From IMG/VR virus record IMGVR_UViG_2690316131_000017: a stretch of DNA of 16,159 nt, one strand, 5' to 3'. Below the pieces are notes generated by a model. That model searched no databases. It was not told the origin of the DNA and was given only the letters and a program-made list of their open reading frames with translations. Position 1 is the first letter of the stretch, and each line of letters opens with the position of its first letter. Shown here one piece after another: positions 2,422 through 16,159 of the stretch. This DNA comes from a virus. Its lineage: Duplodnaviria; Heunggongvirae; Uroviricota; Caudoviricetes. Both the position numbers and the translations under genes were made by a program.

Positions 2422-4083
2422 TTACACCCCGCTAAATTCTTCCAGTTTCTGGCGGTGGCTGTCGCTTATATCAAAAGCAAAATCCTCATGCTCTGCCTGG
2501 AATGTACCAAACGCCATCAGCGCCGCCACGCTCGGGTCTATCTTGTTCGGTGATTTTTTCTTGTTCGGCTTGATATTGGCGTTCGCGTCACTCTGCATCA
2601 CGACGTTACTCATCGACCAGGACAACACCGGATCGCCACGATGCACAATCACCCTGCGGTTAACAAAAACTTCGAACGATTTCGCCGCCGGACTGAATCT
2701 GAGGTAGGTTTGCGGGAACGGCTCCACCTCAAAGCCTGCCCCCTGTAATTGCGTCCTGAGATGCGTGGCGTTCCACGTATCAAAGCCCACCAGCCTGATA
2801 TTAAATTTCTCCGCATCCTGCATGATGTCATCTCTGATCCGGTCGTAATCAATGCAGTCACCTGGCGTTGTGCGTATCCAGCCCGCTTTAGCCCACTGGC
2901 GATAGACAGCGCGGTTTTTATTGGCGGGGTTCTGTAGCTGGAACTCCGGCAGATAATGACGGGAAACCAGCATGATATTTTTACCGACCGGAAAGGCATA
3001 GCACACGCTGGAAATATCGCTGGTTGATGATAAGTCCAGCCCCGCGTAACACTCCTGCCCGTGTAAATCTTCCTCCGTGAACGTTCCGGCACACTCAGCC
3101 CATGCGCCGTTACCCATCCACGGGGTAGCCCCCTGGCACCAGATATTAAATCGCTTTGTCATCATCTCCACCCATTGCGACGGAATACCCCGCGCTTTCT
3201 GGATGGTTGAGGCCAGTTTTTCACGATCCACGGAAACATCGATGTTAGGGTTAGCCTTTATCCACATCGCCGGATCATCAACCTCGTTTTCGTCGTCCAG
3301 TTCGTAAATCAGTACAAAAATTGAATCGTTGACCTCTTCGCCGTCCAGGATCTGGCAGCAATAATCATAGTGCTGCTTACAGGCTGAAACGACGTTACTG
3401 CCCGATGTGGTAATGGCAAATAACAGCCCTTCGGGACGTGCGCCCATCCCCAGCTCAAGCGCGGAATAAACGCCGTTATCGGGGTGTAGGTGGTATTCGT
3501 CCACGATGGAAAGGCTTGGGTTTGTGCCCTCGATGGTTGCCGCTTTTGCTGCCAGCGGCTTTAACAGGCTGTTGCTTTTCGGGTGCATCACCTTGTGGGC
3601 CTGAATATTCACCCGCCTGCGTAACGGTCGGGATAAAAGGCACATCTGACGCGCATCATCAAAAACGATCCGCGCCTGGTCACGGCTCACCGCTGCGGTG
3701 TAAATATCCTGCTGCCCGTTCTCCATAATCAGAAACCAGTTAGCCAGAATCGCGGCGGTCGTGGATTTCGCATTTTTGCGCGGCACTTCGATAAAGGCGC
3801 TCGTGTATTTGCGCCGTCCGGTGGCCTTAACCTTAAAGCCGAGGATGCACGCAAAGGCGAACTGCTGCCACGGCTCCAGCTCAATGGGTCTGCCACGCAT
3901 CGGCCCTTTTACGTGCGGGCACACCCTGGAAAAGGCAATAAACCGCTCCACAACCTCACGATCGAACGTGTAAAGGGGGCTTTCAAGGTCCGAAAAGTAC
4001 CGTTTAACGGCCTGTTTCAGCCGTTTACAGGCCGGAATTTTGCCCGTTTTTACGTCTTCTGCGTACTTATTCCAGGCGGTCAA
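2422..4083 (-). CDS. terminase large subunit (HK97-type)
   Basis: 553 aa with an N-terminal ATPase P-loop-like segment (PRKNAKST) and a C-terminal nuclease-type region with acidic residues. The ORF-track start at 4083 is TTG with a GAGGA Shine-Dalgarno, overlapping the TerS 3' end by 17 nt. Confidence 0.88.
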   Translation of the reverse strand: MTAWNKYAEDVKTGKIPACKRLKQAVKRYFSDLESPLYTFDREVVERFIAFSRVCPHVKGPMRGRPIELEPWQQFAFACILGFKVKATGRRKYTSAFIEVPRKNAKSTTAAILANWFLIMENGQQDIYTAAVSRDQARIVFDDARQMCLLSRPLRRRVNIQAHKVMHPKSNSLLKPLAAKAATIEGTNPSLSIVDEYHLHPDNGVYSALELGMGARPEGLLFAITTSGSNVVSACKQHYDYCCQILDGEEVNDSIFVLIYELDDENEVDDPAMWIKANPNIDVSVDREKLASTIQKARGIPSQWVEMMTKRFNIWCQGATPWMGNGAWAECAGTFTEEDLHGQECYAGLDLSSTSDISSVCYAFPVGKNIMLVSRHYLPEFQLQNPANKNRAVYRQWAKAGWIRTTPGDCIDYDRIRDDIMQDAEKFNIRLVGFDTWNATHLRTQLQGAGFEVEPFPQTYLRFSPAAKSFEVFVNRRVIVHRGDPVLSWSMSNVVMQSDANANIKPNKKKSPNKIDPSVAALMAFGTFQAEHEDFAFDISDSHRQKLEEFSGV

Positions 4084-4423
4084 GCTCGTCCTCTTCTTCT
4101 GTTTCCGGTGGATTTTTACGGCGGCTTATCGGGTCAAAACCGAGCAAAGAGGCCATTTTTATCATCACTCTTTCAGCGTCGGATTTTGCGCTTAATGCGG
4201 GGTTTCTGCTCTCACCGCCCTGACTGTTAACAATGCTGAACCCGCGCGCCGCAAGGTCTGCAACGGCTTTCCGGTAAATGGAGTAGTTGACACAATACAG
4301 TTCCAGATTGCTCCAGTCGGCGGGGGTCAGGTCTCCCCGTTCCGCAAGCTGCCTAGATTTTTCCCGCCACTGCTTCACGGCGATATCATCCAGGTAGGCG
4401 GGGGCTTTCGGTGGTCTTGACAT
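4067..4423 (-). CDS. terminase small subunit, P27 family
   Basis: 118 aa; the pattern (LTPADWSNLELYCVNYSIYRKAVADL ... NPALSAKSDAERVMIKMASLLGFDPISRRK) is typical of P27-type TerS; acidic C-terminus. ATG at 4423. Confidence 0.85.
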   Translation of the reverse strand: MSRPPKAPAYLDDIAVKQWREKSRQLAERGDLTPADWSNLELYCVNYSIYRKAVADLAARGFSIVNSQGGESRNPALSAKSDAERVMIKMASLLGFDPISRRKNPPETEEEDELDRLE

Positions 4424-4546
4424 GCTTATTTTTTCGCCAGATTATTTTTCAAAAAATTCCCGTGCATAAAAATTTGAGGAGGCGTTCGGTGCCCGGCGGA
4501 GTCGGGTTTGTCCTGAAAACGCCCCCCACCCCGTCATACAGCCTCA
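4424..4546. other. candidate cos/packaging-site region upstream of TerS
   Basis: 123-bp non-coding gap between the HNH-side small ORF and TerS, containing a G/C-rich tract (aaaacgccccccaccccgtc). In HNH plus P27-TerS cos phages the cos site usually lies near terS. Position is inferred only. Confidence 0.3.
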
Positions 4547-4729
4547 TCAGCGATTGCGAAAACATTCCATAACCTCGCGGTCACGGTCGGTTAATCGCTT
4601 CGCTGTGATGCGTTCTGCGCGTCCTGACGCTTTATCTTTATGCCCTGTTTCCTGTGTCTTCCATGCGTCACGCTGCCTTATAAGTCCACGGATAAGGCGG
4701 TTTTGTTCCCGCTCATTCATCAGCGTCAT
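4547..4729 (-). CDS. small basic hypothetical protein (60 aa)
   Basis: ATG at 4727-4729 inside the longer track ORF 4547-4951, overlapping the HNH 3' end. Basic composition. Uncertain. Confidence 0.35.
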   Translation of the reverse strand: MTLMNEREQNRLIRGLIRQRDAWKTQETGHKDKASGRAERITAKRLTDRDREVMECFRNR

Positions 4730-5153
4730 ACATCCAGTTATTGCGGTTAGCGGCCCGTTCTTCCTCTGCACGAAATCCACCTGCGGCACGCTTGCTTTTT
4801 GTTGCCGGATCAAGCCATTTCGTTTTCTGGTTATGACACGCCTGGCACAATGGTTGATGGTTCCATTCGGGCCAGAAGAGAACATCATCACCGCCATTAA
4901 TCGGGATAATGTGATCCACCACCACGGCGGGCGTATATATCCCCTTCTCAAGGCATCGCACGCATAACGGGTTTTTACTCAGATACATGGCGCGGTATTT
5001 GTCCCACTGTCTGGAATATCCACGCGCGCGGCGGTGTCCTCGTCTGGCATCCTCTGCACGCCATGCCGCCCGCCTGTGCTCCTCACACTTGCCGGATTTA
5101 ACGCGCCTGTTACAGCCTGGTTCTGTGCATCGTCTTAATGGTTGCCACGGCAT
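4713..5153 (-). CDS. HNH endonuclease (terminase-associated)
   Basis: 146 aa with Cys-rich Zn-binding segments and an HNH core (DHIIPINGG ... NHQPLCQACHNQKT). ATG at 5153 overlaps the connector stop (ATGA). Confidence 0.85.
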   Translation of the reverse strand: MPWQPLRRCTEPGCNRRVKSGKCEEHRRAAWRAEDARRGHRRARGYSRQWDKYRAMYLSKNPLCVRCLEKGIYTPAVVVDHIIPINGGDDVLFWPEWNHQPLCQACHNQKTKWLDPATKSKRAAGGFRAEEERAANRNNWMYDADE

Positions 5154-5449
5154 CAGTACACCCCCACATCACGGTAAGCCGTCCAGAGTGCGCCAATCGT
5201 CATGGGTACGCGTGTTTTTGCGTTATCCGCGACAATCTGGCGATTCTCATACAGGTGAGCGATAAACATCATGCAGCCAATCTTTATGGCTGGCGTGAAC
5301 TCCAGCCCGTCATCAAAGCGCCTGCCTATGTGTATCTGGCACGCCTCAAGCGATGCGGCAATGTATCCGCTGATTAACTGGTCTTCCTCGTCTCCATCGA
5401 TACGGCAATGGAGTTTCACTTCTTCCAGGGTGATAAGTTCTTCTGTCAT
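5153..5449 (-). CDS. gp6-like head-tail connector protein
   Basis: 98 aa; N-terminal pattern (ITLEEVKLHCRIDGDEEDQLISGYIAASLEACQ) is typical of the gp6-like connector family. ATGA overlap with the upstream gene. Confidence 0.78.
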   Translation of the reverse strand: MTEELITLEEVKLHCRIDGDEEDQLISGYIAASLEACQIHIGRRFDDGLEFTPAIKIGCMMFIAHLYENRQIVADNAKTRVPMTIGALWTAYRDVGVY

Positions 5450-5784
5450 TTTTCCGCGCCCTCACGACAAAGAATTTCAAGGCGTGTCCTGGCGACATCC
5501 GGCAACGGCTGCCCGATGATATTCAGTACACGCCCCGCCAGCGGCCCCGTACTGACCTTTATCCGGCTGGTGGCGTTGATGTCCTTCCGGTACCGTATCC
5601 AGATCCTTACGGTACCAATCGCCAGCTCTGCGCCCGATGAAATGGCCTCCTTGCTGCTGATCATGTTCACGCTTGCCCAGAGTGTGTGACCGTCCTCCCA
5701 CGTTTCGAGTATTTCGCCCGTCATGGCTCTGGTCTGTTTCAGGGTCTGAATCGTTATCCTGTCACGCAGTCGCCCTATGTTCAT
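5446..5784 (-). CDS. phage head closure / head-tail adaptor protein
   Basis: Pattern RITIQ ... WASV ... IRYR ... ATSRI is typical of head-tail joining proteins. I prefer the ATG at 5784 (ATGA overlap with the portal stop) to the track start at 5826. Confidence 0.75.
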   Translation of the reverse strand: MNIGRLRDRITIQTLKQTRAMTGEILETWEDGHTLWASVNMISSKEAISSGAELAIGTVRIWIRYRKDINATSRIKVSTGPLAGRVLNIIGQPLPDVARTRLEILCREGAEK

Positions 5785-6992
5785 TCCGTTTTTTCTCCCT
5801 CGCTGATTTTTACTTCCTGTTTCCATGCCTGGCTGAACTCATCACCACCATCACGCGGTGACAGTCCTTCACGTTCGCGGGCTTCGTTCGGGCACATAAC
5901 GCCGGATTTGATGCCGCGCTCATAGGTGGCAAAGCGTTCGCCAGGTGTGGCCCGTAACAGGTCCGCGCTGTCAAACTCCACCTGATACCGGATACCAGGT
6001 ACAGGCGAGGCCACCAGCAGGGCGTTTTTTATCTGCTGCTCAAAGTTCGCCAGCCACGGGCGCATCGTCATGGTGAGAAATGCGCGGCTTGCCTCGCTGA
6101 AATTGCTGTAGGTGCTGTTGCTGTATTCCTGCAAAAAAATCGGCGAGACGTTGAACATTCGGGCGATGTCTTCAATGGTAAAGCGACGGGAGGCCAGCCA
6201 TTCAGCATCCTGATTACTCATGCCCAGCTGCTGATAGCTCATACCCCCTTCAAGGATGGGCGTTTTTCCGGCGTTTCTGGCCCCTTTGTAGCGTTCCAGT
6301 GCGGCTAATGCCTGTTTGCCCTTCACGCCGTCCAGCCATTCGCCTGACGTGATAACCCCTGCCGCCATCATGCCATCACGCATCACGCTCGCGCCGTGGC
6401 GTTGTTGGGCCAGCCCAAGCCCCAGCGATTCGCGGCAGATGGTTACAGGTGAGCGCCCCATAAAGCCGTCATCCGTGGAGTAACGAAGGTGAAGTACTTC
6501 CCACGGTAAATAGTTGTGGGTGTTTCCGGTGTAGGCGTCAGTGATGCAATAGCGCCAGTTGTGTTCTCCTGTCTGCTCCACGTTCACCGACTGCGGCGGG
6601 TAAGGATGTAAAGCCGCCGGAAAACCATCACGCCCCCACTGAATAACCGCATAAGCATTACCGTTTAACAGGCAGTGGCGGATCATCATTCGCTTAAACT
6701 AGTAGGGGGTTTGCCATGCGTTCGGGCGCTCGTTGAAGATGTGATCGACCGGATGAGAATCAAGCCACTCGCGGGCCTCCTTCCCCTTCTCATTGCGTAC
6801 CAGGTACAGGTAGCATGGCATAGTAGCCACCGCCTCAGAGATGACCGTAACGGCGTTCATGACGGCAGGCAGTGATTCCGCTGTCCCCGATGATACGTAC
6901 TCACCCGCCCCCGTGTTCGATGTGCCGGCCAGCGCCATAAATTCATCAAGCGTCATGCTGCGCTGCTCTTTTTTTCTTCTGAAAGGCCACAT
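5781..6992 (-). pseudogene. HK97-family portal protein interrupted by one in-frame TAG (codon 98, plus coordinates 6699-6701)
   Basis: Track ORFs 6699-6992 (97 aa, portal N-terminus AVMNAVTVISEAVATMPCYLY) and 5781-6689 (302 aa, portal core with FTIEDIARMFNVSP) are in the same frame, separated only by TAG and three sense codons. Combined length ~403 codons is portal-sized. Confidence 0.8.
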
Positions 6993-6993
6993 A

Positions 6994-7566
6994 TCACACC
7001 CCCGCTAAATCCGCCCACCAGCGGCGATTATCCGCACGCGGCATTTTTTCGGGGTGCTGCTCATACAGGGAACGGCGGGCCAGCTCCACGCCGGAATCGG
7101 GGTAAGCCGGTACCGATGTAACGGTAATTTCGTACAGTTCCGCCACCAGCACGGTGCGCACGCATGGATCTGTTGTGGTATCCCATACATCCTTACGGGA
7201 GCGAAAGCCAAAGCTCATGCCGGATATATCACCACGTTTAACCAGTTCGATAACGTCGCGCCCTGTACTGGTATCCGGTGGGGTCAGTTCAAAGCGTAAC
7301 CCTGTTTCATCCTCTTCCAGTTTCAGCGTGCCGGAACGGGTGCGCCCCAGTAACATACTGTGGTCATGCTCATACAGGCCGCGAACGTCATTACCCGCCG
7401 CAAGCCATTCAGTAAACGCCCCCCGCTGGAATTTTTCGTAAAACTCACCCCATAACAGTTCTGAAAGCTTATCCCAGCGAACAACGTAGCCTGTAAGCGT
7501 GTTGCTGCCGCTGGTGGTGATTTCCGATGACCGGATTTCCATACTCTTCATAATTTTTTCACCCAT
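6994..7566 (-). CDS. HK97-family prohead protease (S78-type)
   Basis: 190 aa; the pattern (GYVVRWDKLSE ... GAFTEWL ... HDHSMLLGRT ... GMSFGF ... SVPAYPDSGVE) matches the prohead protease family. Stop is 1 nt before the portal ATG. Confidence 0.85.
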   Translation of the reverse strand: MGEKIMKSMEIRSSEITTSGSNTLTGYVVRWDKLSELLWGEFYEKFQRGAFTEWLAAGNDVRGLYEHDHSMLLGRTRSGTLKLEEDETGLRFELTPPDTSTGRDVIELVKRGDISGMSFGFRSRKDVWDTTTDPCVRTVLVAELYEITVTSVPAYPDSGVELARRSLYEQHPEKMPRADNRRWWADLAGV

Positions 7567-7575
7567 AAAACACTA

Positions 7576-7595
7576 AAGGGGCTTTTAAGCCCCTT
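7576..7595 (-). terminator. stem-loop between the capsid and protease genes (AAGGGGCTT..AAGCCCCTT), candidate partial terminator
   Basis: 9-bp inverted repeat in the 39-bp capsid-protease gap, followed on the minus-strand RNA by a U-rich stretch (UAGUGUUUU). Confidence 0.4.
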
Positions 7596-7605
7596 CTGTA
7601 TGCTG

Positions 7606-8763
7606 TTAATCGTCGTCCTGTGGCAGTTCCAGAATCTTGATCGCGTTCGAATCCACCACGCCACCGCCTAAATATTTCTGCGTGAAAATTTTGATGAAGC
7701 CCGGCTCTGTGAGGTTGTCCGGTCTGGTGCGAACACCTGTTTCGTGATCAACAATGTAGTAACCGCGTTTGAAGTCACCCAGGGCAATAACGTTATCAGG
7801 CATAAACTCCAGATATTCGACCGGAAGGCCCAGCAACGTATCAGGATCACCCGCCTGTAAACGGTCACGCCAGATGTAATCACCGTTCGCGTTCTTCACC
7901 TTCTGGAGTTTTGCCGCCGTCGTGGAGTTAACCACCCAGACCGCGTTTTTGCGGTATTTTTTACGTAATGCAAATTTCAGGTCGATCAGCGGGTCCGCAG
8001 ATGTCCACGCCAGAGATTCGGAAGGTTTAATTACCTGCAACGTACCAAAATCACGCTCTTTGTCGTTCTTCTCTGCACGGGGTACGGATAAAAAGCCTTT
8101 TGCTTTTTTGTCACCGTCGCCCACAACCAGATCGCTTTCTTCGGTTTCCGTGAAGGTGTCGCCAATCTCGCCCGTCAGCCATGAAAGGATGTCCACATCG
8201 GAAAAATCCACGATTTCCTGTGTGGTGCGCGGGTACGCATAGACCGGATACAGCTTAATGCTCACCTCGTTAATCTGCGGGGTGCTGGTCTGTTCGCGTG
8301 CCTTACCCTCTTCACCGTGGTTAACGGTCGCACCGCCAGCGGAAACAAGCTGCTTAAACTCGTTGCTGCTGATTTTCTTCACGGTACAGATGCGGCGCAT
8401 GGTGGATTCATCCGCCAGCATTCGCATGATTTCGGTGTTCAGTTCGGGGATAACGGTATAACCACCATCAGCGGGAACGCCTGTACTTAATGCGCGGGTT
8501 TCACCCGTCAGAATGTAGTTTCGTAGTTCTGCGGGGTCAGTGGTCTGACTGCTTTTACCTGGCTTGCTGCGCTCTTCGTCTGCAATGGCTTCAAGGCGGG
8601 AAATGTCTTTATCGAGGGATTCAGCTTTAGCGCGTAATTCGTCAAATTTTGCGCCCTCAGCATCGTTAAGACTGCGGTTTTCTTTTTCAGCGTTCTCCAG
8701 CATGTCGCGCATCTGATTTTTAATGGCGGTTTTCTGCTGGCGTAATTCGATTATTCTCGGCAT
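7606..8763 (-). CDS. major capsid protein, HK97 fold, with N-terminal coiled-coil delta (scaffold) domain
   Basis: N-terminal ~100 aa is heptad-rich and charged, followed by an HK97-like capsid body. No separate scaffold gene. First ATG at 8763; the track ORF extends to a TTG at 8808. Confidence 0.85.
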   Translation of the reverse strand: MPRIIELRQQKTAIKNQMRDMLENAEKENRSLNDAEGAKFDELRAKAESLDKDISRLEAIADEERSKPGKSSQTTDPAELRNYILTGETRALSTGVPADGGYTVIPELNTEIMRMLADESTMRRICTVKKISSNEFKQLVSAGGATVNHGEEGKAREQTSTPQINEVSIKLYPVYAYPRTTQEIVDFSDVDILSWLTGEIGDTFTETEESDLVVGDGDKKAKGFLSVPRAEKNDKERDFGTLQVIKPSESLAWTSADPLIDLKFALRKKYRKNAVWVVNSTTAAKLQKVKNANGDYIWRDRLQAGDPDTLLGLPVEYLEFMPDNVIALGDFKRGYYIVDHETGVRTRPDNLTEPGFIKIFTQKYLGGGVVDSNAIKILELPQDDD

Positions 8764-8978
8764 AAAAAAAAGTCCTGGGGTTAAGTAAGGAACTCCAGGA
8801 CGCGGCAAACACTCAACCGTTTTTCATAAGGAAATCAGCAATCGCACCGATCGTTTTCCCGCCTGGTAATGAATATTGGCGAGCACATTAACAGGCGGGA
8901 AAGTGGCCCCAGCGTCCTGGCACCACGGGCGAGAATAATCATGATTCAGTTCGGGTAAAATATGCCGATCCGCTCAGT

Positions 8979-9903: not shown

Positions 9904-9953
9904 TTATTTTCACCCCCCTCGTTTAAAAAGTTTTGAGTTGTGCCTCCCCCCCC

Positions 9954-10172
9954 TCTACCCATCTACCCGAATGCTCATCATGTCAGTAATGGCGCGGCTT
10001 TCAGCGGGTAGATAGCTTTTTTGGCTCCTCTACCTGCCGTCTACCCTGCTACCTGAAATTGATAAAATCAGGTAGAAGAGGTAGAGAGGTTTTATTAGCC
10101 TTCTACCTAGCCCTCCACCCACTTATCATGTTGAATAATATGCGTTTATCTCATTCAGGTAGATGGGGTAGA
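9954..10172. repeat. replication-origin iteron field: at least 11 copies of TCTACC(C/T) / GGTAGA in both orientations with AT-rich spacers
   Basis: Copies near 9954, 9962, 10006 (inverted), 10029, 10040, 10049, 10071 and 10080 (inverted), 10102, 10158 and 10166 (inverted). Immediately downstream of the primase stop at 10189; flanked by AT-rich tracts and a C8 homopolymer at 9946-9953. Confidence 0.65.
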
Positions 10173-10188
10173 GGGCTTTTACAAAAAA

Positions 10189-11943
10189 TTATAAAAACGC
10201 GTCACAATCATCCGTTGTAATTGCGTTGGTCTGCGTTACTCCCTTAACTTTCCGCGTAATATATTCATGTCCGTAAACTTTTGCCGCTGGCTTCATGGCC
10301 TTGCTGAACTCAGCCACGTTTAGCGGTTTGCTCCTGCCTGCGTATGCCATAAACGCCAGATAGACGCGGTAAAGGCTGTTCCTGGTCGTGTACTTCACTG
10401 AATCGCCACCGCCACCCATCATCAGGCCGCGCGCTTCCTCCAGAAAATTCAGGAACTGGCAAAACTCAATAACCGGATCCGTCTGTTGCTTTATTGCCAG
10501 TGCTTCATCACCGTCGCGCTGTTCCAGGAGTAAAGCCCGTGCCTTTTCAGGGTCGGCAAAGTTCGCCAGTAATCGGCGGATAATCACAGGGATTTCAGCC
10601 GCAATCTTTTCCGGTAGCTCCCTGTCTTTTTCGGCCTCACTGACGATATTGTCGAAACGGAAAATCACGCGACGACGTGCCACACCTCCGGCCCGTTCGG
10701 TGAATATCATCGGGTTGTTGTTGGTCGCCAGCACCACCGCCCTGATTACCGCCGTGAAACGCTTTTCATATTTCGGGTTAATTTCCACGGGGTCGCCGCC
10801 CGTGATTTTCTTGATGCCCGTTCCTTCGCCTGTATATTTCGGCTGGTCTGCCAGGACGATAAGACGACTCCCGACAACCTGCGCACGTCCACCAGCATCA
10901 TCAAGCGATGTCATCTCAGCGCTTACCGTGTTCTGTTTCCCTGCCAGAAGGCTGGCTATGTGTGTGAATGTACTTTTACCGCTCCCGCCGTCTCCGGTGG
11001 CCTCAATAAACATCTGCCAGTCGTACCGGTTCGCCATAATCATGTACAGCGCGGCACATATACGCATCATCTTGCGCGGGTCTTTTCCGGCTGCGTGCTC
11101 AAGCCATTTATGAAAGTTTGGCGCGTTGTCGCGGATATTCTCCCCTGGTGCTGGTGGCGTGTACTCAATGCCGTTATGCGTGGTGATCCAGTTCTCCGGC
11201 GTGTGCGGGGAAAATTCCCCCGTTTTCAGGTCAAGCACACCATTGGCGAACGGCAGCAAATCGCCGGACGGTTCGCCCATTGGTTCGGCAATAACTTTTA
11301 ACGCTTCCACGGTGTTATTGATTACGCGCTTGCTGAAAGTGGCCCTGTGCTCTGAATAGATCGCCACCATTTCGCGGCTCAGTGCCATTGTGCTGACCGG
11401 ACACCATACCCCGCCGCGCCATACGTGAACGATTTCACTTTCAGGATGTACGCAAACGCCATCAAAGCGCCCGGCAAGCAGCTGCGCGCGCTCACTGTCC
11501 GCCATCTGCGAAAGTTGCGCCTTTTGCTTTACCGGAAGCTCAATGACCAGACCATCAGAAAGATTCTGGCGCTCACGGGCCAGATATTCGCGCCAGTTCT
11601 CCACCTCCTGAACGTGCATTCCCTCAGGGTAAAAATTTGCATCCTGTACACCTGCCGCCGCCAGCTTCTGACCAATCGCCTTTATCATTACAGGCTCAAG
11701 ATGTCCGGCCCTGAATATGCGTACTGATTTTCGGCCTTCCGGCACAATTTGCAGCTTATCCAGTTCGGATAACTGCTGCTCCCCAAGCCACACAGGAGGC
11801 TCATTATCTCCGGCCATACGCGCGTCATGTTCCTGCCATTGTTTTGCGTGTGACCAGGCATCACTACCCGCAAAAATAATGACTTCTGTTTCTTTGTGTT
11901 TTATGCCGCGTGACTGCTGTTTTACGTTCGGTGCCAGTTTCAT
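10189..11943 (-). CDS. P4-family primase/helicase (replication initiator)
   Basis: 584 aa with a Walker A P-loop (GDGGSGKST) in a D5/P4-type helicase region preceded by a primase-like N-terminal domain. ATG at 11943 overlaps the upstream stop (ATGA). Adjacent to the iteron ori. Confidence 0.88.
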   Translation of the reverse strand: MKLAPNVKQQSRGIKHKETEVIIFAGSDAWSHAKQWQEHDARMAGDNEPPVWLGEQQLSELDKLQIVPEGRKSVRIFRAGHLEPVMIKAIGQKLAAAGVQDANFYPEGMHVQEVENWREYLARERQNLSDGLVIELPVKQKAQLSQMADSERAQLLAGRFDGVCVHPESEIVHVWRGGVWCPVSTMALSREMVAIYSEHRATFSKRVINNTVEALKVIAEPMGEPSGDLLPFANGVLDLKTGEFSPHTPENWITTHNGIEYTPPAPGENIRDNAPNFHKWLEHAAGKDPRKMMRICAALYMIMANRYDWQMFIEATGDGGSGKSTFTHIASLLAGKQNTVSAEMTSLDDAGGRAQVVGSRLIVLADQPKYTGEGTGIKKITGGDPVEINPKYEKRFTAVIRAVVLATNNNPMIFTERAGGVARRRVIFRFDNIVSEAEKDRELPEKIAAEIPVIIRRLLANFADPEKARALLLEQRDGDEALAIKQQTDPVIEFCQFLNFLEEARGLMMGGGGDSVKYTTRNSLYRVYLAFMAYAGRSKPLNVAEFSKAMKPAAKVYGHEYITRKVKGVTQTNAITTDDCDAFL

Positions 11944-12239
11944 TTTTTACCCCTGAATCCGTTAATCATGGTTTTCAGCTTCTGGATGTTTGCCCGTGCC
12001 CTGGCGTTGCTGGTGGGCACGTTATGCGGCGCGGTCTGTACCAGAGAAAAATCACGCCGGAACTGATAAACAGGCATCACGCAATCATATTCGTAACCTT
12101 CACGGCGGTAAGTTACGCACCGTCCCGCCACGCCCTTAATCATTACCGTGCCGCCGTACTGGTCGCGGTAAATATCGCCGCGCGTAAATTTAGGGTGAGT
12201 GTTGCCACTGGCAGTTAAGCCAGAATATTTAAGTTTCAT
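11940..12239 (-). CDS. hypothetical protein (99 aa)
   Basis: ATG at 12239 with a GGAGAA Shine-Dalgarno; translationally coupled to the primase. No family recognised. Confidence 0.55.
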   Translation of the reverse strand: MKLKYSGLTASGNTHPKFTRGDIYRDQYGGTVMIKGVAGRCVTYRREGYEYDCVMPVYQFRRDFSLVQTAPHNVPTSNARARANIQKLKTMINGFRGKK

Positions 12240-12244
12240 TATTT

Positions 12245-12478
12245 TTATTCTCCGGTGTGCTGTTCTTTATATCTGTCGTGCAATAGATCTATTTCTTGCA
12301 GTTCCATTATTACAGGCTCAAGAAGCGTTATTAATGCCGTGGCAATTCTTGATTTTTGTTTGTCGCGTTCATTGTCGCCAAGTGTTTCAAGCCATATGCG
12401 CAATATTTCCAGCATGTTTTCACTGTGAGAAAGTGCAAGAAATGCGCGGTCTATTGTTTCGAGGTAAATATCACGCAT
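12245..12478 (-). CDS. hypothetical protein (77 aa)
   Basis: ATG at 12478 overlaps the upstream stop by 8 nt (ATGCGTGA); begins MRD. Confidence 0.5.
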   Translation of the reverse strand: MRDIYLETIDRAFLALSHSENMLEILRIWLETLGDNERDKQKSRIATALITLLEPVIMELQEIDLLHDRYKEQHTGE

Positions 12479-12704
12479 GGCTTACATCCTCAGGAAATTT
12501 TCTTCTGTAACGCGCCTCTGCCACATATTCCGCATAATCGGCGGCGATATTCAGTACATCAAGCCCCGTTGATTTATATTCTCTCGTGGAAAGTAAGAAA
12601 AAAGCCGCTCTAATAAGTTCTGGCATTGACGAAAGCGCATCAGCCGCATCATCAGGAACGCCGGAAAATTCCTGTTTCAGGGAATTAAAACGATCATCAC
12701 GCAT
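12471..12704 (-). CDS. hypothetical protein (77 aa from internal ATG; track ORF to 12731)
   Basis: ATG at 12704 is preceded by a GGGGGG Shine-Dalgarno and overlaps the upstream stop by 8 nt with the same ATGCGTGA junction; also begins MRD. Confidence 0.45.
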   Translation of the reverse strand: MRDDRFNSLKQEFSGVPDDAADALSSMPELIRAAFFLLSTREYKSTGLDVLNIAADYAEYVAEARYRRKFPEDVSHA

Positions 12705-12936
12705 AACCCCCCCCATTTTCACAATCAGCAATCAGGATGGCTTTGGCCTCATTCAGCGCCATATCCGCACTAAGTTGCATAACCGCCAGCGAATGAGGAA
12801 CGAAAGCCCCGGCATATTCTGTTTCACTGGTGGCGTGCTTATGCGCCCTGTCAGCAATAACAGAAATATCAATAAGCGCGTGCATCAGCGTAGTGAGCGC
12901 GGCGGCAGCTGCGTCCGGACGGATGTTATTGCACAT
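12697..12936 (-). CDS. hypothetical protein (79 aa from internal ATG; track ORF to 12993)
   Basis: ATG at 12936 is preceded by a GGAGGGG Shine-Dalgarno. Ala-rich. Confidence 0.45.
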   Translation of the reverse strand: MCNNIRPDAAAAALTTLMHALIDISVIADRAHKHATSETEYAGAFVPHSLAVMQLSADMALNEAKAILIADCENGGGYA

Positions 12937-13159
12937 GGTGTACCCCTCCGCATTTTTTTTCGTTAGAAATAAGCGTTCTTCTTTCCTGTTCATCGCTCAG
13001 GAATACGCAGACCTCACCGCTAAGGCGTTTAAGTAAGCCGATGATTGCCCCTGATTCGCTGTCGGTCATCATGCCAGGGTAATCCTCTGCCAGTGCGCAA
13101 ATGACTTCGATTTGGTGGGCGCGTTCTGCTGCCTGTTGTAGTGTGATTTCCTGGCTCAT
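12926..13159 (-). CDS. hypothetical protein (77 aa from internal ATG; track ORF to 13225)
   Basis: ATG (MSQEIT...) overlaps the stop of the upstream gene (ATGA). Coordinates follow the ORF-track frame. Confidence 0.45.
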   Translation of the reverse strand: MSQEITLQQAAERAHQIEVICALAEDYPGMMTDSESGAIIGLLKRLSGEVCVFLSDEQERRTLISNEKKCGGVHHVQ

Positions 13160-13356
13160 AAGCCTACCCCCTGACGAATACGGGCGGCGAATACCATCAC
13201 GCAGCCAGCCGGAGATTGCTGGCATGCTTCCTGTTCGCTGGTGGCCTCAATGGTAATCACGCGCGGTTGTGCCGTGCTCAGGGCGATAAAACGCCAGATG
13301 TATTTATTCAGGTTGTGCGAGTCCCGCCCTTGCGGGTGTGTGGTATGATTTCTCAT
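13156..13356 (-). CDS. hypothetical protein (66 aa), first gene of the leftward early operon
   Basis: C-terminal 66 codons of the 387-aa track ORF. ATG at 13354-13356 with a GAGGT Shine-Dalgarno, directly downstream of the operator-bearing promoter. The rest of the long ORF is judged spurious. Confidence 0.4.
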   Translation of the reverse strand: MRNHTTHPQGRDSHNLNKYIWRFIALSTAQPRVITIEATSEQEACQQSPAGCVMVFAARIRQGVGL

Positions 13357-13453
13357 AGCTACCTCGATACTTTCGCTATCGTTGGTGGTTAGACGCCCTG
13401 CATGTGTTGCGAGCACTGCGGGGCGTTGCTTAATTTGAGTGACAAAACTCAAA

Positions 13454-13540
13454 CTGTGCGCACAGATTAAAATCATGTGTGCGCACATGTCAATACTTAA
13501 CATCTCATTTTTTTTGCTGTATTGTGTGCGCCCATAAAGT
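13454..13540. promoter_or_regulatory. divergent promoter/operator switch with TGTGCGCACA palindromes
   Basis: Perfect 12-bp palindrome CTGTGCGCACAG (13454-13465), 10-bp palindrome TGTGCGCACA (13478-13487) and a half-site TGTGCGC (about 13525-13531). Leftward promoter read on the minus strand: TTGACA (13488-13493), 16-bp spacer, TTTAAT (13466-13471). Candidate rightward promoter TTGCTG / TAAAGT. Confidence 0.55.
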
Positions 13541-13561
13541 CCATTTAAGTGAGGTGCATCA

Positions 13562-13759
13562 ATGTCTAGCGGTAACACAAACAACAAATCAGCAAAGAAA
13601 AATATTCGATTCCCGCATGAGCTTATAGATGGGATTGATGCCAGCGTTGAACAAGAAAAATTAACTAATCCTAGTGCTAATTTTTCCGCATGGGTCTTAG
13701 ATGCCTGTGGACGCAAATTAAAATATGAACAGCGCCGGAAGGCCAAAGAATCAGAATAA
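13562..13759 (+). CDS. small DNA-binding-like protein (65 aa), candidate island repressor; possibly YlcI/YnfO-like
   Basis: ATG at 13562 with a GTGAGGTG Shine-Dalgarno. The segment KKNIRFPHELIDGIDASVEQE ... NFSAWVLDACGRKL has a strand-helix-helix pattern suggestive of a ribbon-helix-helix fold. The YlcI/YnfO (DUF3950) resemblance is from memory and unverified. Confidence 0.55.
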   Translation: MSSGNTNNKSAKKNIRFPHELIDGIDASVEQEKLTNPSANFSAWVLDACGRKLKYEQRRKAKESE

Positions 13760-13816
13760 TCACTATCAGCGCCGTGGTGTGAGGAACTACGGCGCATTTC
13801 TTTACAGGAGTAGACA

Positions 13817-14002
13817 ATGAACAACGAAGAATTACGGGAAATCGCATTATCCATACTTGAAAGACAGGTAGAAAAAAAATTAAGAGAAATGGATGAAATG
13901 CCTGACCATGAACAGGAAGCAAGGCCAAAAAGATTTGCCCTTGAGGATTTTCTTAAAAATTGCCCAAGAAAGATGAGATCGTGGCGTTGTTGTCCGCCCT
14001 GA
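13817..14002 (+). CDS. hypothetical protein (61 aa)
   Basis: ATG at 13817 with a GGAG Shine-Dalgarno; co-directional with the upstream gene and followed by a strong terminator. Confidence 0.5.
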   Translation: MNNEELREIALSILERQVEKKLREMDEMPDHEQEARPKRFALEDFLKNCPRKMRSWRCCPP

Positions 14003-14079
14003 TGACAGATTTGCCAACCAGCCAAAAATGTGGCATCGTTGTCGATACATAGTGTAATCAACATGTATATCATATTTTT

Positions 14080-14106
14080 GCGACCATCATAGGTCGCATT
14101 TTTTTT
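14080..14106 (+). terminator. intrinsic terminator (GCGACC-atcata-GGTCGC followed by T8)
   Basis: Perfect 6-bp GC-rich stem followed by an 8-T run; about 80 bp downstream of the plus-strand gene pair. Confidence 0.7.
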
Positions 14107-14376
14107 GCCTGTAATCCGGCAATTGTGGCGCTTCTTCACACAGTTGATATAATTCCAATGCTCATATTTATTTTTTGTGCAGCAGGTTAATCGTTCACAA
14201 AGGCGCTCAGGTAACTGGGCGCTTTTTGTTATGCCTGAAAAACCCCAATTTTGTTGTTTTTCAGTTTCACCAGGGCGAACGAATCCCCGCCTACGTTCTG
14301 GCGTATATTCAATCTTCATGGTTATAGCTCTGTGTTCAGATGATTGATGTGTGGCGGCTGCGTGCCGCCAGCGTGA

Positions 14377-14565
14377 TTAATGAACTGCCTTGCAGCTATC
14401 CTTCCAGGCCAGAACCTCGGATAAAGACCAGCCAACGGAACGACCGCCAAGTTTACGACGTGATGGGAATTGTCCGGCCTTTTCCAGGCGGTAGCGACAC
14501 GTACGGCTAAGGCCGGTTAGTTTTTCGCATTCTTTTTCACGTATAAACCGATCAGTGCTTAACAC
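14377..14565 (-). CDS. alpA: AlpA-family transcriptional regulator / excisionase-like protein
   Basis: 62 aa; the motif LTGLSRTCRYRLEKAGQFPSRRKLGGRSVGWSLSEVLAW matches the AlpA/excisionase winged-helix family. GTG start at 14565 with an AAGGGGG Shine-Dalgarno 5 nt upstream. Confidence 0.8.
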   Translation of the reverse strand: MLSTDRFIREKECEKLTGLSRTCRYRLEKAGQFPSRRKLGGRSVGWSLSEVLAWKDSCKAVH

Positions 14566-14837
14566 TATTGCCCCCTTTCGTTTCTTAAAGAGTCATCAGG
14601 TGTCTTATTGTGTCGTATTGTTCCCGCTAGAGTGATAAATGGCAAATACTGAGGATGTATGATTTACAGAAAATGAAACAGTAAGAATAAAATCTTTTAA
14701 ATTCACGTTAATACAAAGGCATAAAATATTGTTTCATGCCTTTTTTCTCGCTCTTTAAAGAGTGATTCGCTAGTGTATAAAAAACCAGTAACGCATTAAA
14801 AATCAGCCACTTATAAATCCGTACGCTTTTTCGCCTC

Positions 14838-14929: not shown

Positions 14930-16159
14930 TTATTTTCTTCTGGCTACTGGTAGCGTGGTTACGTTTTCATGTGTTCCCGCCAGTATCCCTAACCGCTCCG
15001 TCCACATATCCAGCGCATTGCGTTTAGCATCCAGATAACGGGAATGATTATAAACTCGCTGCATTCCTGGCATCTGGTGGCCTGTAAGCTGCTCCACGAC
15101 GTGAGAATCCACGCCTAAATCGTTCAGCATCGTTGTAAAGGTGCGCCGGATGTCATGTAGTGACCAGTGAGGGTGATTTAGCCTCCTGTGCGCTAATCTG
15201 CCGTACTGCGACACGCTTGTTTCCTGTTTCACTTCCCCCAGCAATAAACCCGTGTGCCTGTTCTGCTCCACCAGCTGCGTGACGAACGGCAGTATTGCTT
15301 CCGGTATGGGCCGGAATATTGCCACCTTCGTTTTGCTGTGTTCTTTCGGCACGGTCCAGAGCATTTCGGTAAAATCCCACTCGCTGATCTCCGATAACCT
15401 CAGTTCTACCGTCCGGCATCCGAACACAATCAGGAGGCGGATTAGCGCGATGTAGTAGGGGGAGAATATTTTTTTGTCCAGTGCCTGCAATAATTCGCCA
15501 AGTTCTTTGTTGCTTAAGACACGCTCGCTTATATCCGGTTTTTTCCCAACGTCCGCCACACTCATATCATCAAGAACGTTGCTGATTGCATAGCGCCGCT
15601 TCCGGCAGAACTTAAGCGCCTGCTTGCATGTCTGTAGCAGGAACCCGGCGGAAACAGGGGCTTGCTTTGCCACCCGATCAAAACAGGCCAGCCAGTGCCG
15701 TAGCTCGCATTTATCCAGCGGCATAGGGCCAATGTGCTGTATTACGTGATTATTTAGCCGCTTTTTCAGTGGGTCATAATCCACACGGTTTTCCTTTGCG
15801 TACGACTCAAGCCAGTAGGTGAGCGTATCACCAACCGTTACCGGCTTTAACGCTTCCTGTACGGTGTAATTCATCTCATGACGTGGATTTTTCCCCTCAG
15901 CCAGCCATGCGCGACACTGGGCGGCTTTTTCCCTGGCTGATTTCAGACTCAGATCAGGATAATTTCCCAGCTTAATGCGTTCCGGTGGTGCCCCCCTTCC
16001 CGTTCCGGCCCTGTAAGTGAAATACCAGGTTAAAAGGCCGCTGGTTGAATGCCTGACGCTCAGATTTCCACCGTCATTAAGAAAGGCTGTTTTTTGGGCG
16101 GGTGTGCCGTTGATTTTCCTTAGCAGTGTATCGCTCAGTTTGTTAAGTGCTCTGCTCAT
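14930..16159 (-). CDS. tyrosine integrase with N-terminal arm-binding (DUF4102-like) domain
   Basis: 409 aa. N-terminal arm-binding-type pattern (LSDTLLRKI ... LNDGGNLSV ... WYFTYR ... IKLGNYPDLSLKSAREKA) and a C-terminal catalytic region with R..HxxR..Y-type residues (HDIRRTF ... HSRY). The ATG is the last 3 nt of the window, so the upstream region and att site are not visible. Confidence 0.9.
   Translation of the reverse strand: MSRALNKLSDTLLRKINGTPAQKTAFLNDGGNLSVRHSTSGLLTWYFTYRAGTGRGAPPERIKLGNYPDLSLKSAREKAAQCRAWLAEGKNPRHEMNYTVQEALKPVTVGDTLTYWLESYAKENRVDYDPLKKRLNNHVIQHIGPMPLDKCELRHWLACFDRVAKQAPVSAGFLLQTCKQALKFCRKRRYAISNVLDDMSVADVGKKPDISERVLSNKELGELLQALDKKIFSPYYIALIRLLIVFGCRTVELRLSEISEWDFTEMLWTVPKEHSKTKVAIFRPIPEAILPFVTQLVEQNRHTGLLLGEVKQETSVSQYGRLAHRRLNHPHWSLHDIRRTFTTMLNDLGVDSHVVEQLTGHQMPGMQRVYNHSRYLDAKRNALDMWTERLGILAGTHENVTTLPVARRK

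Follow-up and report, generated by a model that had tools for sequence, protein, structure and literature searches.

A probable operon of six small coupled genes ahead of the primase in a capsid-forming satellite of Escherichia coli, with a length-variable poly-G tract at one of its joints

The stretch of 16,159 nt deposited in IMG/VR as IMGVR_UViG_2690316131_000017 (below, "the window" means this whole stretch) is a capsid-forming phage-inducible chromosomal island (cf-PICI) of the EcCICFT073/EcCIEDL933 type inserted beside phoQ, and the present analysis deals with a block of six small genes, O1 to O6, which lies on its minus strand and leads into the gene of a primase/replicase (Table 1). 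The initial annotation of this DNA had reported six consecutive same-strand open reading frames (ORFs) of 66-99 aa at 11940-13356, and these limits proved to be exact, the strand being the minus one. Its description of the block as a small-gene operon leading into a satellite primase was also supported, as the genes are co-directional, their junctions are coupled, and the island possesses int, alpA, the primase gene and a capsid/packaging module. The statement that the genes are chained by ATGA or by 8-nt overlaps was accurate for four of the six junctions and failed at O2/O3, with its 11-nt overlap, and at O5/O6, where a 5-nt spacer was found.

Table 1. Features of the small-gene block and of its surroundings (coordinates refer to the window; junctions and tract alleles are listed with their state only)
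Feature	Position	Strand	Description
O1	13356..13156	-	66 aa; first gene of the operon
O2	13159..12926	-	77 aa
O3	12936..12697	-	79 aa
O4	12704..12471	-	77 aa
O5	12478..12245	-	77 aa
O6	12239..11940	-	99 aa
Primase/replicase	11943..10189	-	584 aa; D5_N + DUF5906 + Pox_D5, TIGR01613, P4-family primase C-terminal domain
O1/O2 junction			ATGA, 4-nt overlap
O2/O3 junction			ATGTGCAATAA, 11-nt overlap
O3/O4 junction			ATGCGTGA, 8-nt overlap
O4/O5 junction			ATGCGTGA, 8-nt overlap
O5/O6 junction			TAA-aaata-ATG, 5-nt gap, overlap-free
O6/primase junction			ATGA, 4-nt overlap
Poly-G tract, G8	12707..12714	-	two bases before the O4 start; SD-like element of O4
Tract allele G7			O3 and O4 fused, ...ENGGVMRDD...; an O157:H7 strain, strain 2013C-3264
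Tract allele G8			O3 stops in ATGCGTGA, O4 starts there; this window, CFT073, Nissle 1917, S. flexneri
Tract allele G9			two ORFs, longer overlap; NCTC 86, RM9975
Tract allele G10			O3 and O4 fused, one extra Gly; RM13745
A8 run near the O2 3' end	12953..12960	-	A7 alleles fuse O2 to O3
Divergent control region	13455..13534		three TGTGCGCACA-type palindromes
YlcI/YnfO-family (DUF3950) small protein	13562..13759	+	NF041551, 3.5e-16; PF13132
AlpA-family regulator	14377..14565	-	PF05930, 5.4e-17
Tyrosine integrase	16159..14930	-	ORF

All six ORFs match PHROG families, with E values from 1e-28 to 1e-49, and upstream of each of the six starts there is a Shine-Dalgarno (SD)-like GGAGG, GGGGG or GAGG. 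Among the alleles of 66 related loci, the ratio of nonsynonymous to synonymous substitution rates (dN/dS) was 0.10-0.46 for each ORF, a rough measure, as the allele pairs are non-independent, and it is by virtue of these values that the six ORFs are considered coding. The exact protein sequences of all six are already present in public E. coli records; cluster listings, being contaminated with unrelated proteins of neighbouring genes (RepA helicases among the members of the cluster of DUF4222, the family of O6), were relied on for such exact-sequence look-ups only. The same six genes have also been annotated by the NCBI prokaryotic genome annotation pipeline (PGAP) in strain GN02050 and in CFT073, the host of EcCICFT073. 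Taken together, these observations suggest that O1-O6 are genuine, translationally coupled genes which constitute the promoter-proximal part of the early/replication operon of a PICI of the EcCICFT073/EcCIEDL933 type, and we assign to this reading, made from sequence, a probability of about 0.7.

The initial annotation recognised no family signature in any of the six ORFs, which is incorrect for the first and the last of them, O2-O5 having matched only PHROGs of unknown function. O1 is Icd-like: its residues 19-62 match the NCBIfam model NF033153 with 62.4 bits against a cut-off of 25 (E = 3e-17), the protein matches phrog_6196 at 1.7e-44, its dN/dS is 0.35, and its exact sequence is named Icd-like in NCBI. 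The model owes its name to Icd of P1, expression of which, according to passages of two reports, filaments E. coli through a reversible inhibition of cell division (PMC5944126, PMC10695390). The O1 frame stays open for 387 codons upstream (13156-14319, minus strand), crossing the promoter/operator region and running antisense to the YlcI/YnfO gene. This extension gave no Pfam match and looks non-protein-like; a long Icd-like protein encoded by the 387-codon frame was considered and rejected, the frame being read instead as a shadow of the plus-strand genes. The open frame probably accounts for the varying size, from 66 to 157 aa, of the Icd-like proteins which PGAP calls in different genomes, and for the pseudogene remnants called next to alpA.

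O6 belongs to DUF4222 (PF13973), matching the full 53-position model with 82.1 bits against a cut-off of 27. Its AlphaFold2 (AF2) model, with a mean predicted local distance difference test score (pLDDT) of 76.8 and a core at about 90, consists of a five-stranded barrel followed by a basic C-terminal helix, and the predicted fold is an SH3/Tudor-like barrel; the viral structure matches were DUF1653-like proteins of unknown function. A search of the phage collection with O6 returned one weak Klebsiella match and no P4. In nine of ten annotated E. coli loci the DUF4222 gene overlaps the replicase start by 4 nt, and in the tenth (L009) it directly abuts it, while the replicase that follows varies, being a D5/P4 primase, a RepA-family helicase or a DUF927 protein. 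The first two of these types have an N-terminal domain in common, which measures about 125 aa and shows 64% identity between the window (10189-11943) and locus L004 (10904-12304). This arrangement suggests a conserved unit of DUF4222 and the replicase N-terminal domain with swappable catalytic parts.

Between these two, the genes encode small proteins that are probably helical and belong to narrow enterobacterial families. No relatives of O2-O5 were found in Pfam, NCBIfam, PADLOC or the PDB; by sequence, the six proteins matched PDB chains at chance level only, and none of O1-O6 matched a PADLOC model up to an E value of 1, whilst for the primase a weak mad3 match (0.0023) was the only one. 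O2 (phrog_1478, 3e-28; predicted helical; dN/dS 0.10) is an accessory cassette found in about 19 of the 66 loci and missing from many related operons, and its exact sequence occurs on at least 1000 contigs. O5 (phrog_2196, 1.1e-40; predicted helical; dN/dS 0.28) is replaced in some islands by an unrelated cassette, O5b.

Such replacement is general in this part of the operon: related islands differ by the gain, loss and exchange of genes 2-5, which behave as cassettes. A rough ORF-chaining script, applied to the 55 loci in which both ends were present, counted about 25 gene orders between the Icd-like and DUF4222 genes, the exact order of the window occurring in 6 of the 55 loci. The variants include the presence or absence of O2, a second Icd-like gene, cassettes of the X and O5b types at several positions, and replacement of O5; alleles of one gene are from 50% to 100% identical and combine freely with alleles of the others. 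Two of the cassettes are absent from the window: X, of 121 aa, which stands between O3 and O4 (L063, 2558-2923; L064, 2532-2897), and O5b, of 66 aa, in the place of O5 (L064, 2113-2313). X and O5b are homologous (hhalign probability 99.7%), and therefore X contains an O5b-like domain.

The closest counterparts of the block are found in two islands for which induction, replication and transfer dependent on the helper phage and on AlpA have been demonstrated, EcCICFT073 and EcCIEDL933 (PMC6092414; bioRxiv 10.1101/2022.09.08.507074). After induction of EcCICFT073 by a helper phage, both the genes of the island and the promoter of alpA itself are activated by AlpA, and the island interferes with lambda through genes that were not identified, the small genes having been drawn as hypothetical and left outside the study (PMC6092414). 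The window reproduces its order of divergent YlcI/YnfO gene, Icd-like gene, O2, O3, O4, O5, DUF4222 gene and primase gene, with identities of 97% for O1, 100% for O2, 54% for O3, 90% for O4, 88% for O5, 91% for O6 and 98% for the primase; the O3/O4 junction is also G8 there, and int and alpA, the latter encoding the AlpA activator, also lie upstream. The two differ in O3, which is a divergent allele, and in the structural part, as EcCICFT073 has a packaging module without a full capsid set, whereas the island of the window has a cf-PICI module. EcCIEDL933 is a capsid-forming PICI of about 15 kb (bioRxiv 10.1101/2022.09.08.507074) resembling the window in its set of int, alpA, rep, major capsid, protease, portal, connector, HNH, TerS and TerL genes and in the lack of tail genes, and differing from it in the portal gene, which in the window has an in-frame amber codon. 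The O157:H7-type islands sampled carry a RepA-type helicase instead of the D5/P4 primase of the window, and a fused G7 O3~O4 gene without O2.

A similar layout is that of the left operon of satellite P4 (kil ... cnr - alpha primase), in which small genes precede a P4-family primase and are co-transcribed with it, and where cnr, located just upstream of alpha, regulates replication. Thereby P4 cnr is an analogue of the DUF4222 gene, a positional one only, because DUF4222 gave no P4 match in the phage collection. The genes that PICIs and P4 share are int, alpA/vis and the primase gene only, and these are distantly related (PMC6092414).

A different role for genes of this kind is suggested by a prophage locus of ECOR61, in which an Icd-like gene together with all six linked genes, primase included, is needed for the growth arrest triggered by a phage gene, orf24 (bioRxiv 10.1101/2023.04.06.535777). 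By analogy, the small genes and the primase of the window might form an abortive-infection or superinfection-exclusion module with the Icd-like protein as its effector. Both loci comprise an Icd-like gene, several linked small genes and a DNA primase, which in ECOR61 are reported to act as one unit (bioRxiv 10.1101/2023.04.06.535777), and the lambda interference of EcCICFT073 mentioned above would agree with such a role. However, the ECOR61 Icd-like protein has a long N-terminal extension, while O1 as called has 66 aa, its open upstream frame notwithstanding, and PADLOC matched none of the six; we regard such a module as unlikely.

Upstream of O1 lies a divergent control region, which contains TGTGCGCACA-type palindromes at 13455-64, 13478-87 and 13525-34 (= TGTGCGCCCA), spaced by 23 and 47 nt, and a perfect -35 element TTGACA at 13493-13488 on the minus strand. 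The palindromes, lying between the operon and the divergent YlcI/YnfO gene, look like a classic operator arrangement. The YlcI/YnfO domain bears a weak resemblance to HicB-like antitoxins, and its protein may at most be named as a candidate binder of the palindromes, that is, a candidate repressor. To our knowledge, a repressor candidate of this operator type is undescribed for the PICIs of E. coli, which are thought to depend on activation by AlpA. It is plausible that the operon has an operator-controlled and/or AlpA-dependent promoter.

The mechanism we envisage is as follows. Upon helper-phage induction, AlpA and/or relief of an operator-bound repressor would turn the operon on, and at each overlap of stop and start the ribosomes would be handed on to the following gene, as far as the primase. 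The Icd-like protein would arrest host division during replication of the island, DUF4222 would act on, or together with, the conserved N-terminal domain of the replicase, O3 and O4 would act together, and the middle cassettes, O2-O5, may mediate interactions with the helper phage or the host.

The O3/O4 joint possesses a peculiarity of its own, the poly-G tract, set in the context ...GATTGTGAAAAT-G(n)-TTATGCGTGATGATCG... and differing in length among islands, so that O3 and O4 are either separate genes or a single one (Table 1). O3, a predicted helical hairpin (dN/dS 0.42), matches phrog_5146 and residues 1-76 of the 154-aa phrog_2512, and its counterpart in the fused protein, which also has 154 aa, is the N-terminal half; O4, also predicted to be helical (dN/dS 0.26), matches phrog_24341 and residues 78-154 of phrog_2512, its counterpart being the C-terminal half. 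The junction is carried by 893 E. coli genomes, among which the lengths G7, G8, G9 and G10 are all represented by exact matches; these exact-length queries show existence and not counts, partial local alignments also reaching at least 99% identity. Counted with a tract-length-tolerant pattern, 52 metagenome contigs comprised 28 with G8, 12 with G9, 10 with G7 and 2 with G10. PGAP annotation of this place varies between one gene, two genes and a "frameshifted" pseudogene, and genome annotations disagree because the length of the tract sets whether O3 and O4 are fused or separate.

In the simplest reading, the G run is the SD-like element of O4, comparable to GGGGG or GGAGG at the other joints, lengthened into a slippery homopolymer. 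Both outcomes are predicted to leave both polypeptide segments expressed, and as a natural fusion exists, it suggests that O3 and O4 work together and are probable partners. A second homopolymer has a similar consequence one joint upstream: the run near the 3' end of O2 is A8 in 16 loci and A7 in two (L009, L018), and triple O2~O3~O4 fusions of 224 aa are on record (P0061, P0068, P0075). In E. coli UMNF18 (L065), positions 2495-2857 hold a chimeric gene composed of an Icd-like N-terminal part and the C-terminal half of O3, joined at a short "ATSE" motif common to both genes, and the poly-G run there is interrupted (GGCGGGGGC).

A homopolymer of at least 7 nt whose length alters the reading frame is what is expected of phase variation, and the tract might accordingly be a true contingency locus, switching at high frequency within a clone between two functional states of O3/O4. 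Alleles with tract lengths of 7, 8, 9 and 10 are found that show at most one difference in the 130 bases flanking the tract, and all four lengths are also present in short-read-style metagenome assemblies. As junctions at least 99% identical to that of the window include G7, G8 and G9, the length of the tract changes faster than its flanking bases. Yet in a spread sample all 14 junctions at 96.5% identity, mostly from O157:H7 strains, were G7, which indicates stability over clonal time. Furthermore, there is no ON/OFF pair: whatever the tract length, the frame of O3 stays open and O4 retains both ATG and SD-like run, and because O4 has its own start throughout, neither state is an OFF state. 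A rapid switch within a clone thus appears distinctly unlikely to us, and the tract looks like a mutational hot spot on the evolutionary time scale. Within the literature searched, we found no paper that connects PICIs to tracts of this homopolymeric kind.

The initial annotation had also named, as grounds for its refutation, homologues showing the ORFs to be fragments of one larger disrupted gene, and for O3/O4 such a reading found partial support, fused ORFs being numerous in E. coli and stand-alone ones commoner across the family. According to this explanation, O3 and O4 are halves of a single 154-aa gene which slippage by +1 G, or else an error of sequencing, has disrupted, a pseudogene then, and the count of six genes is an artefact. 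The division of phrog_2512 between the two proteins agrees with it; a conceptual-fusion search yielded at least 120 clusters of E. coli proteins of 150-155 aa, with 154/155-aa fused ORFs, at 78-97% identity; an evenly spaced sample of junctions at least 99% identical to that of the window contained six G7 against one G8 and one G9; and one G9 allele is labelled "frameshifted" by PGAP. On the other hand, the family, which is narrow (64 representatives from a profile search of 1.84 billion entries), has only about 3 of 64 representatives fused when clustered at 50% identity, most being stand-alone O3-like or O4-like proteins, and each half is found without the other: O4 follows X in L063 and L064, again with a G6 run and ATGCGTGA, and O3 is present without O4 in L065. 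In addition, G8 is the commonest length in the metagenome contigs and is the state of CFT073 and Nissle 1917, the exact 79-aa O3 of the window occurs on 43 contigs, the split keeps start codon, SD-like run and overlapping stop alike, and the dN/dS of 0.26-0.42 in split alleles is that of purifying selection. Considering these facts, we find a broken gene very doubtful. A tblastn search of phage genomes with the fused O3-O4 protein gave no match.

The sixfold operon, with O3 and O4 as separate genes in the window, is also characterised by the make-up of its joints. At most gene boundaries of related operons, those of unrelated genes included, the upstream gene ends in "...(Q/E)(G/E)V.HA*", a GGAGG or GGGGG stands 7-9 nt before the next ATG, and the upstream stop falls inside the first codons of the next gene, as in ATGCGTGA, ATGCATAA, ATGCGTAA, ATGTGTAA and ATGTGCAATAA; the SD-like element lies within the end of the upstream gene at every junction, and the overlapping stop/start is found at most, not all, of them. 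The initial annotation rightly noticed that the octamer ATGCGTGA is repeated at O3/O4 and O4/O5 and that both downstream genes start with MRD, and took it as a hint of duplication, whereas the repetition is explained by this shared junction pattern. Tandem duplication of O4 and O5, to which their identical 9-nt starts (ATGCGTGAT) and equal length of 77 aa might point, is almost certainly wrong, as BLASTP gave no alignment at E up to 100, hhalign gave a probability of 0.4% against 99.7% for the positive control X121/O5b, and the same pattern borders unrelated genes; at the sequence and profile level this paralogy is refuted. Profile-profile comparison among all six families kept every probability below 3%, giving no paralogy.

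Several points weigh against the operon reading as a whole. The roles of all six proteins are inferred. The minus-strand -10 element is a weak one (TAATCT, at 18-nt spacing), and a consensus scan did not call the minus-strand promoter, only a plus-strand one at 13497-13525; of the "repressible promoter" of the initial annotation, the perfect -35 and the three palindromes are thus confirmed, and a convincing -10 is not. The likeness of O1 to P1 Icd exists at the level of the hidden Markov model (HMM) only, a tblastn search of 50,697 phage records with O1 having returned one Klebsiella satellite-like record, P1 being absent. The immI operon of P1 (c4 RNA - icd - ant) does resemble the block in that a small first gene of the Icd family is translationally coupled to the next, and it differs from the window, in which no antirepressor follows the Icd-like gene and no c4-like antisense RNA was detected: no Rfam family reached the gathering score in the window, and within 11800-14700 nothing relevant was seen up to an E value of 1. 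For the fused O3-O4 protein the AF2 model, although helical, is of low confidence (pLDDT 53.7) and therefore permits no statement on the fold of the fusion or the O3/O4 interface. The constant adjacency of DUF4222 to "different" replicases is in part due to the N-terminal domain which these replicases share. Finally, the metagenome loci were fetched with the O3/O4 junction sequence itself, and because the junction served as the query, its conservation in these loci is biased.

The surroundings of the block agree with its assignment to a cf-PICI. Positions 1-1872 of the window align at 97% with the sequence that borders, on the phoQ side, the annotated PICIs of GN02050 and AMSHJX01, the phoQ-side attachment site being common to other annotated PICIs, and int, alpA and the primase gene all have one orientation, on the minus strand. 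Downstream of the primase gene, PHROG matches at 2422-8808 revealed the capsid/packaging module with major capsid, protease, portal, head closure, adaptor, HNH, TerS and TerL genes; among the ten large ORFs scanned, the smaller ones lying outside the scan, there was no match to tail or lysis genes. The portal gene (5781-6992, minus strand) carries an in-frame amber TAG at 6699-6701, on either side of which the ORFs 6992..6699 (97 aa) and 6689..5781 (302 aa), of one frame, match consecutive parts of portal phrog_12. Because of this interruption the present cf-PICI copy may be defective, its capsid assembly then requiring suppression of the codon. A stretch at 9946-10185, situated after the primase stop and before the next ORF and containing many GGTAGA/CTACC repeats, is rich in iterons and looks like a candidate replication origin of the island; a second G8 run (9946-9953) marks one end of it.

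The small-gene region is matched, at least partly, in 1822 of 5426 complete E. coli genomes; a megablast search of phage genomes with the region gave no match, and a scan of genome contigs with O6 found two loci only. The block is, in this respect, unexceptional: a known kind of satellite contains it as a widespread component that has been annotated before, and what is modestly new is limited to the poly-G-dependent fusion and fission of O3/O4 and the pattern shared by the joints.

A bolder reading joins these two novelties. The array from the Icd-like to the DUF4222 gene could be a cassette system of proteins targeted at the helper phage or the host, with the SD/stop-start joints as points of recombination and the poly-G tract as a tuning knob, by which the change from O3 plus O4 to a single chain, and back, would alter the stoichiometry or activity of a satellite factor; this factor could serve interference, inducer sensing or abortive infection. 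We consider it speculative and improbable. If it were true, poly-G tuning would be a fusion/fission form of phase variation, undescribed for satellites in the literature searched.

As regards the biology of these satellites, the small genes, present in about a third of complete E. coli genomes with partial matches counted, head the replication operon of PICIs, two experimental prototypes included, and yet are uncharacterised. The analysis narrows the focus to the first gene, which is Icd-like, to the Tudor/SH3-like protein that goes with the replicase and to a swappable middle array, removes duplication as a false lead, and, through the fusion/fission polymorphism, marks O3 and O4 as probable partners. 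If the array encodes factors of helper interference or abortive infection, the arms race between satellites and their helpers would be recorded in its mosaicism.

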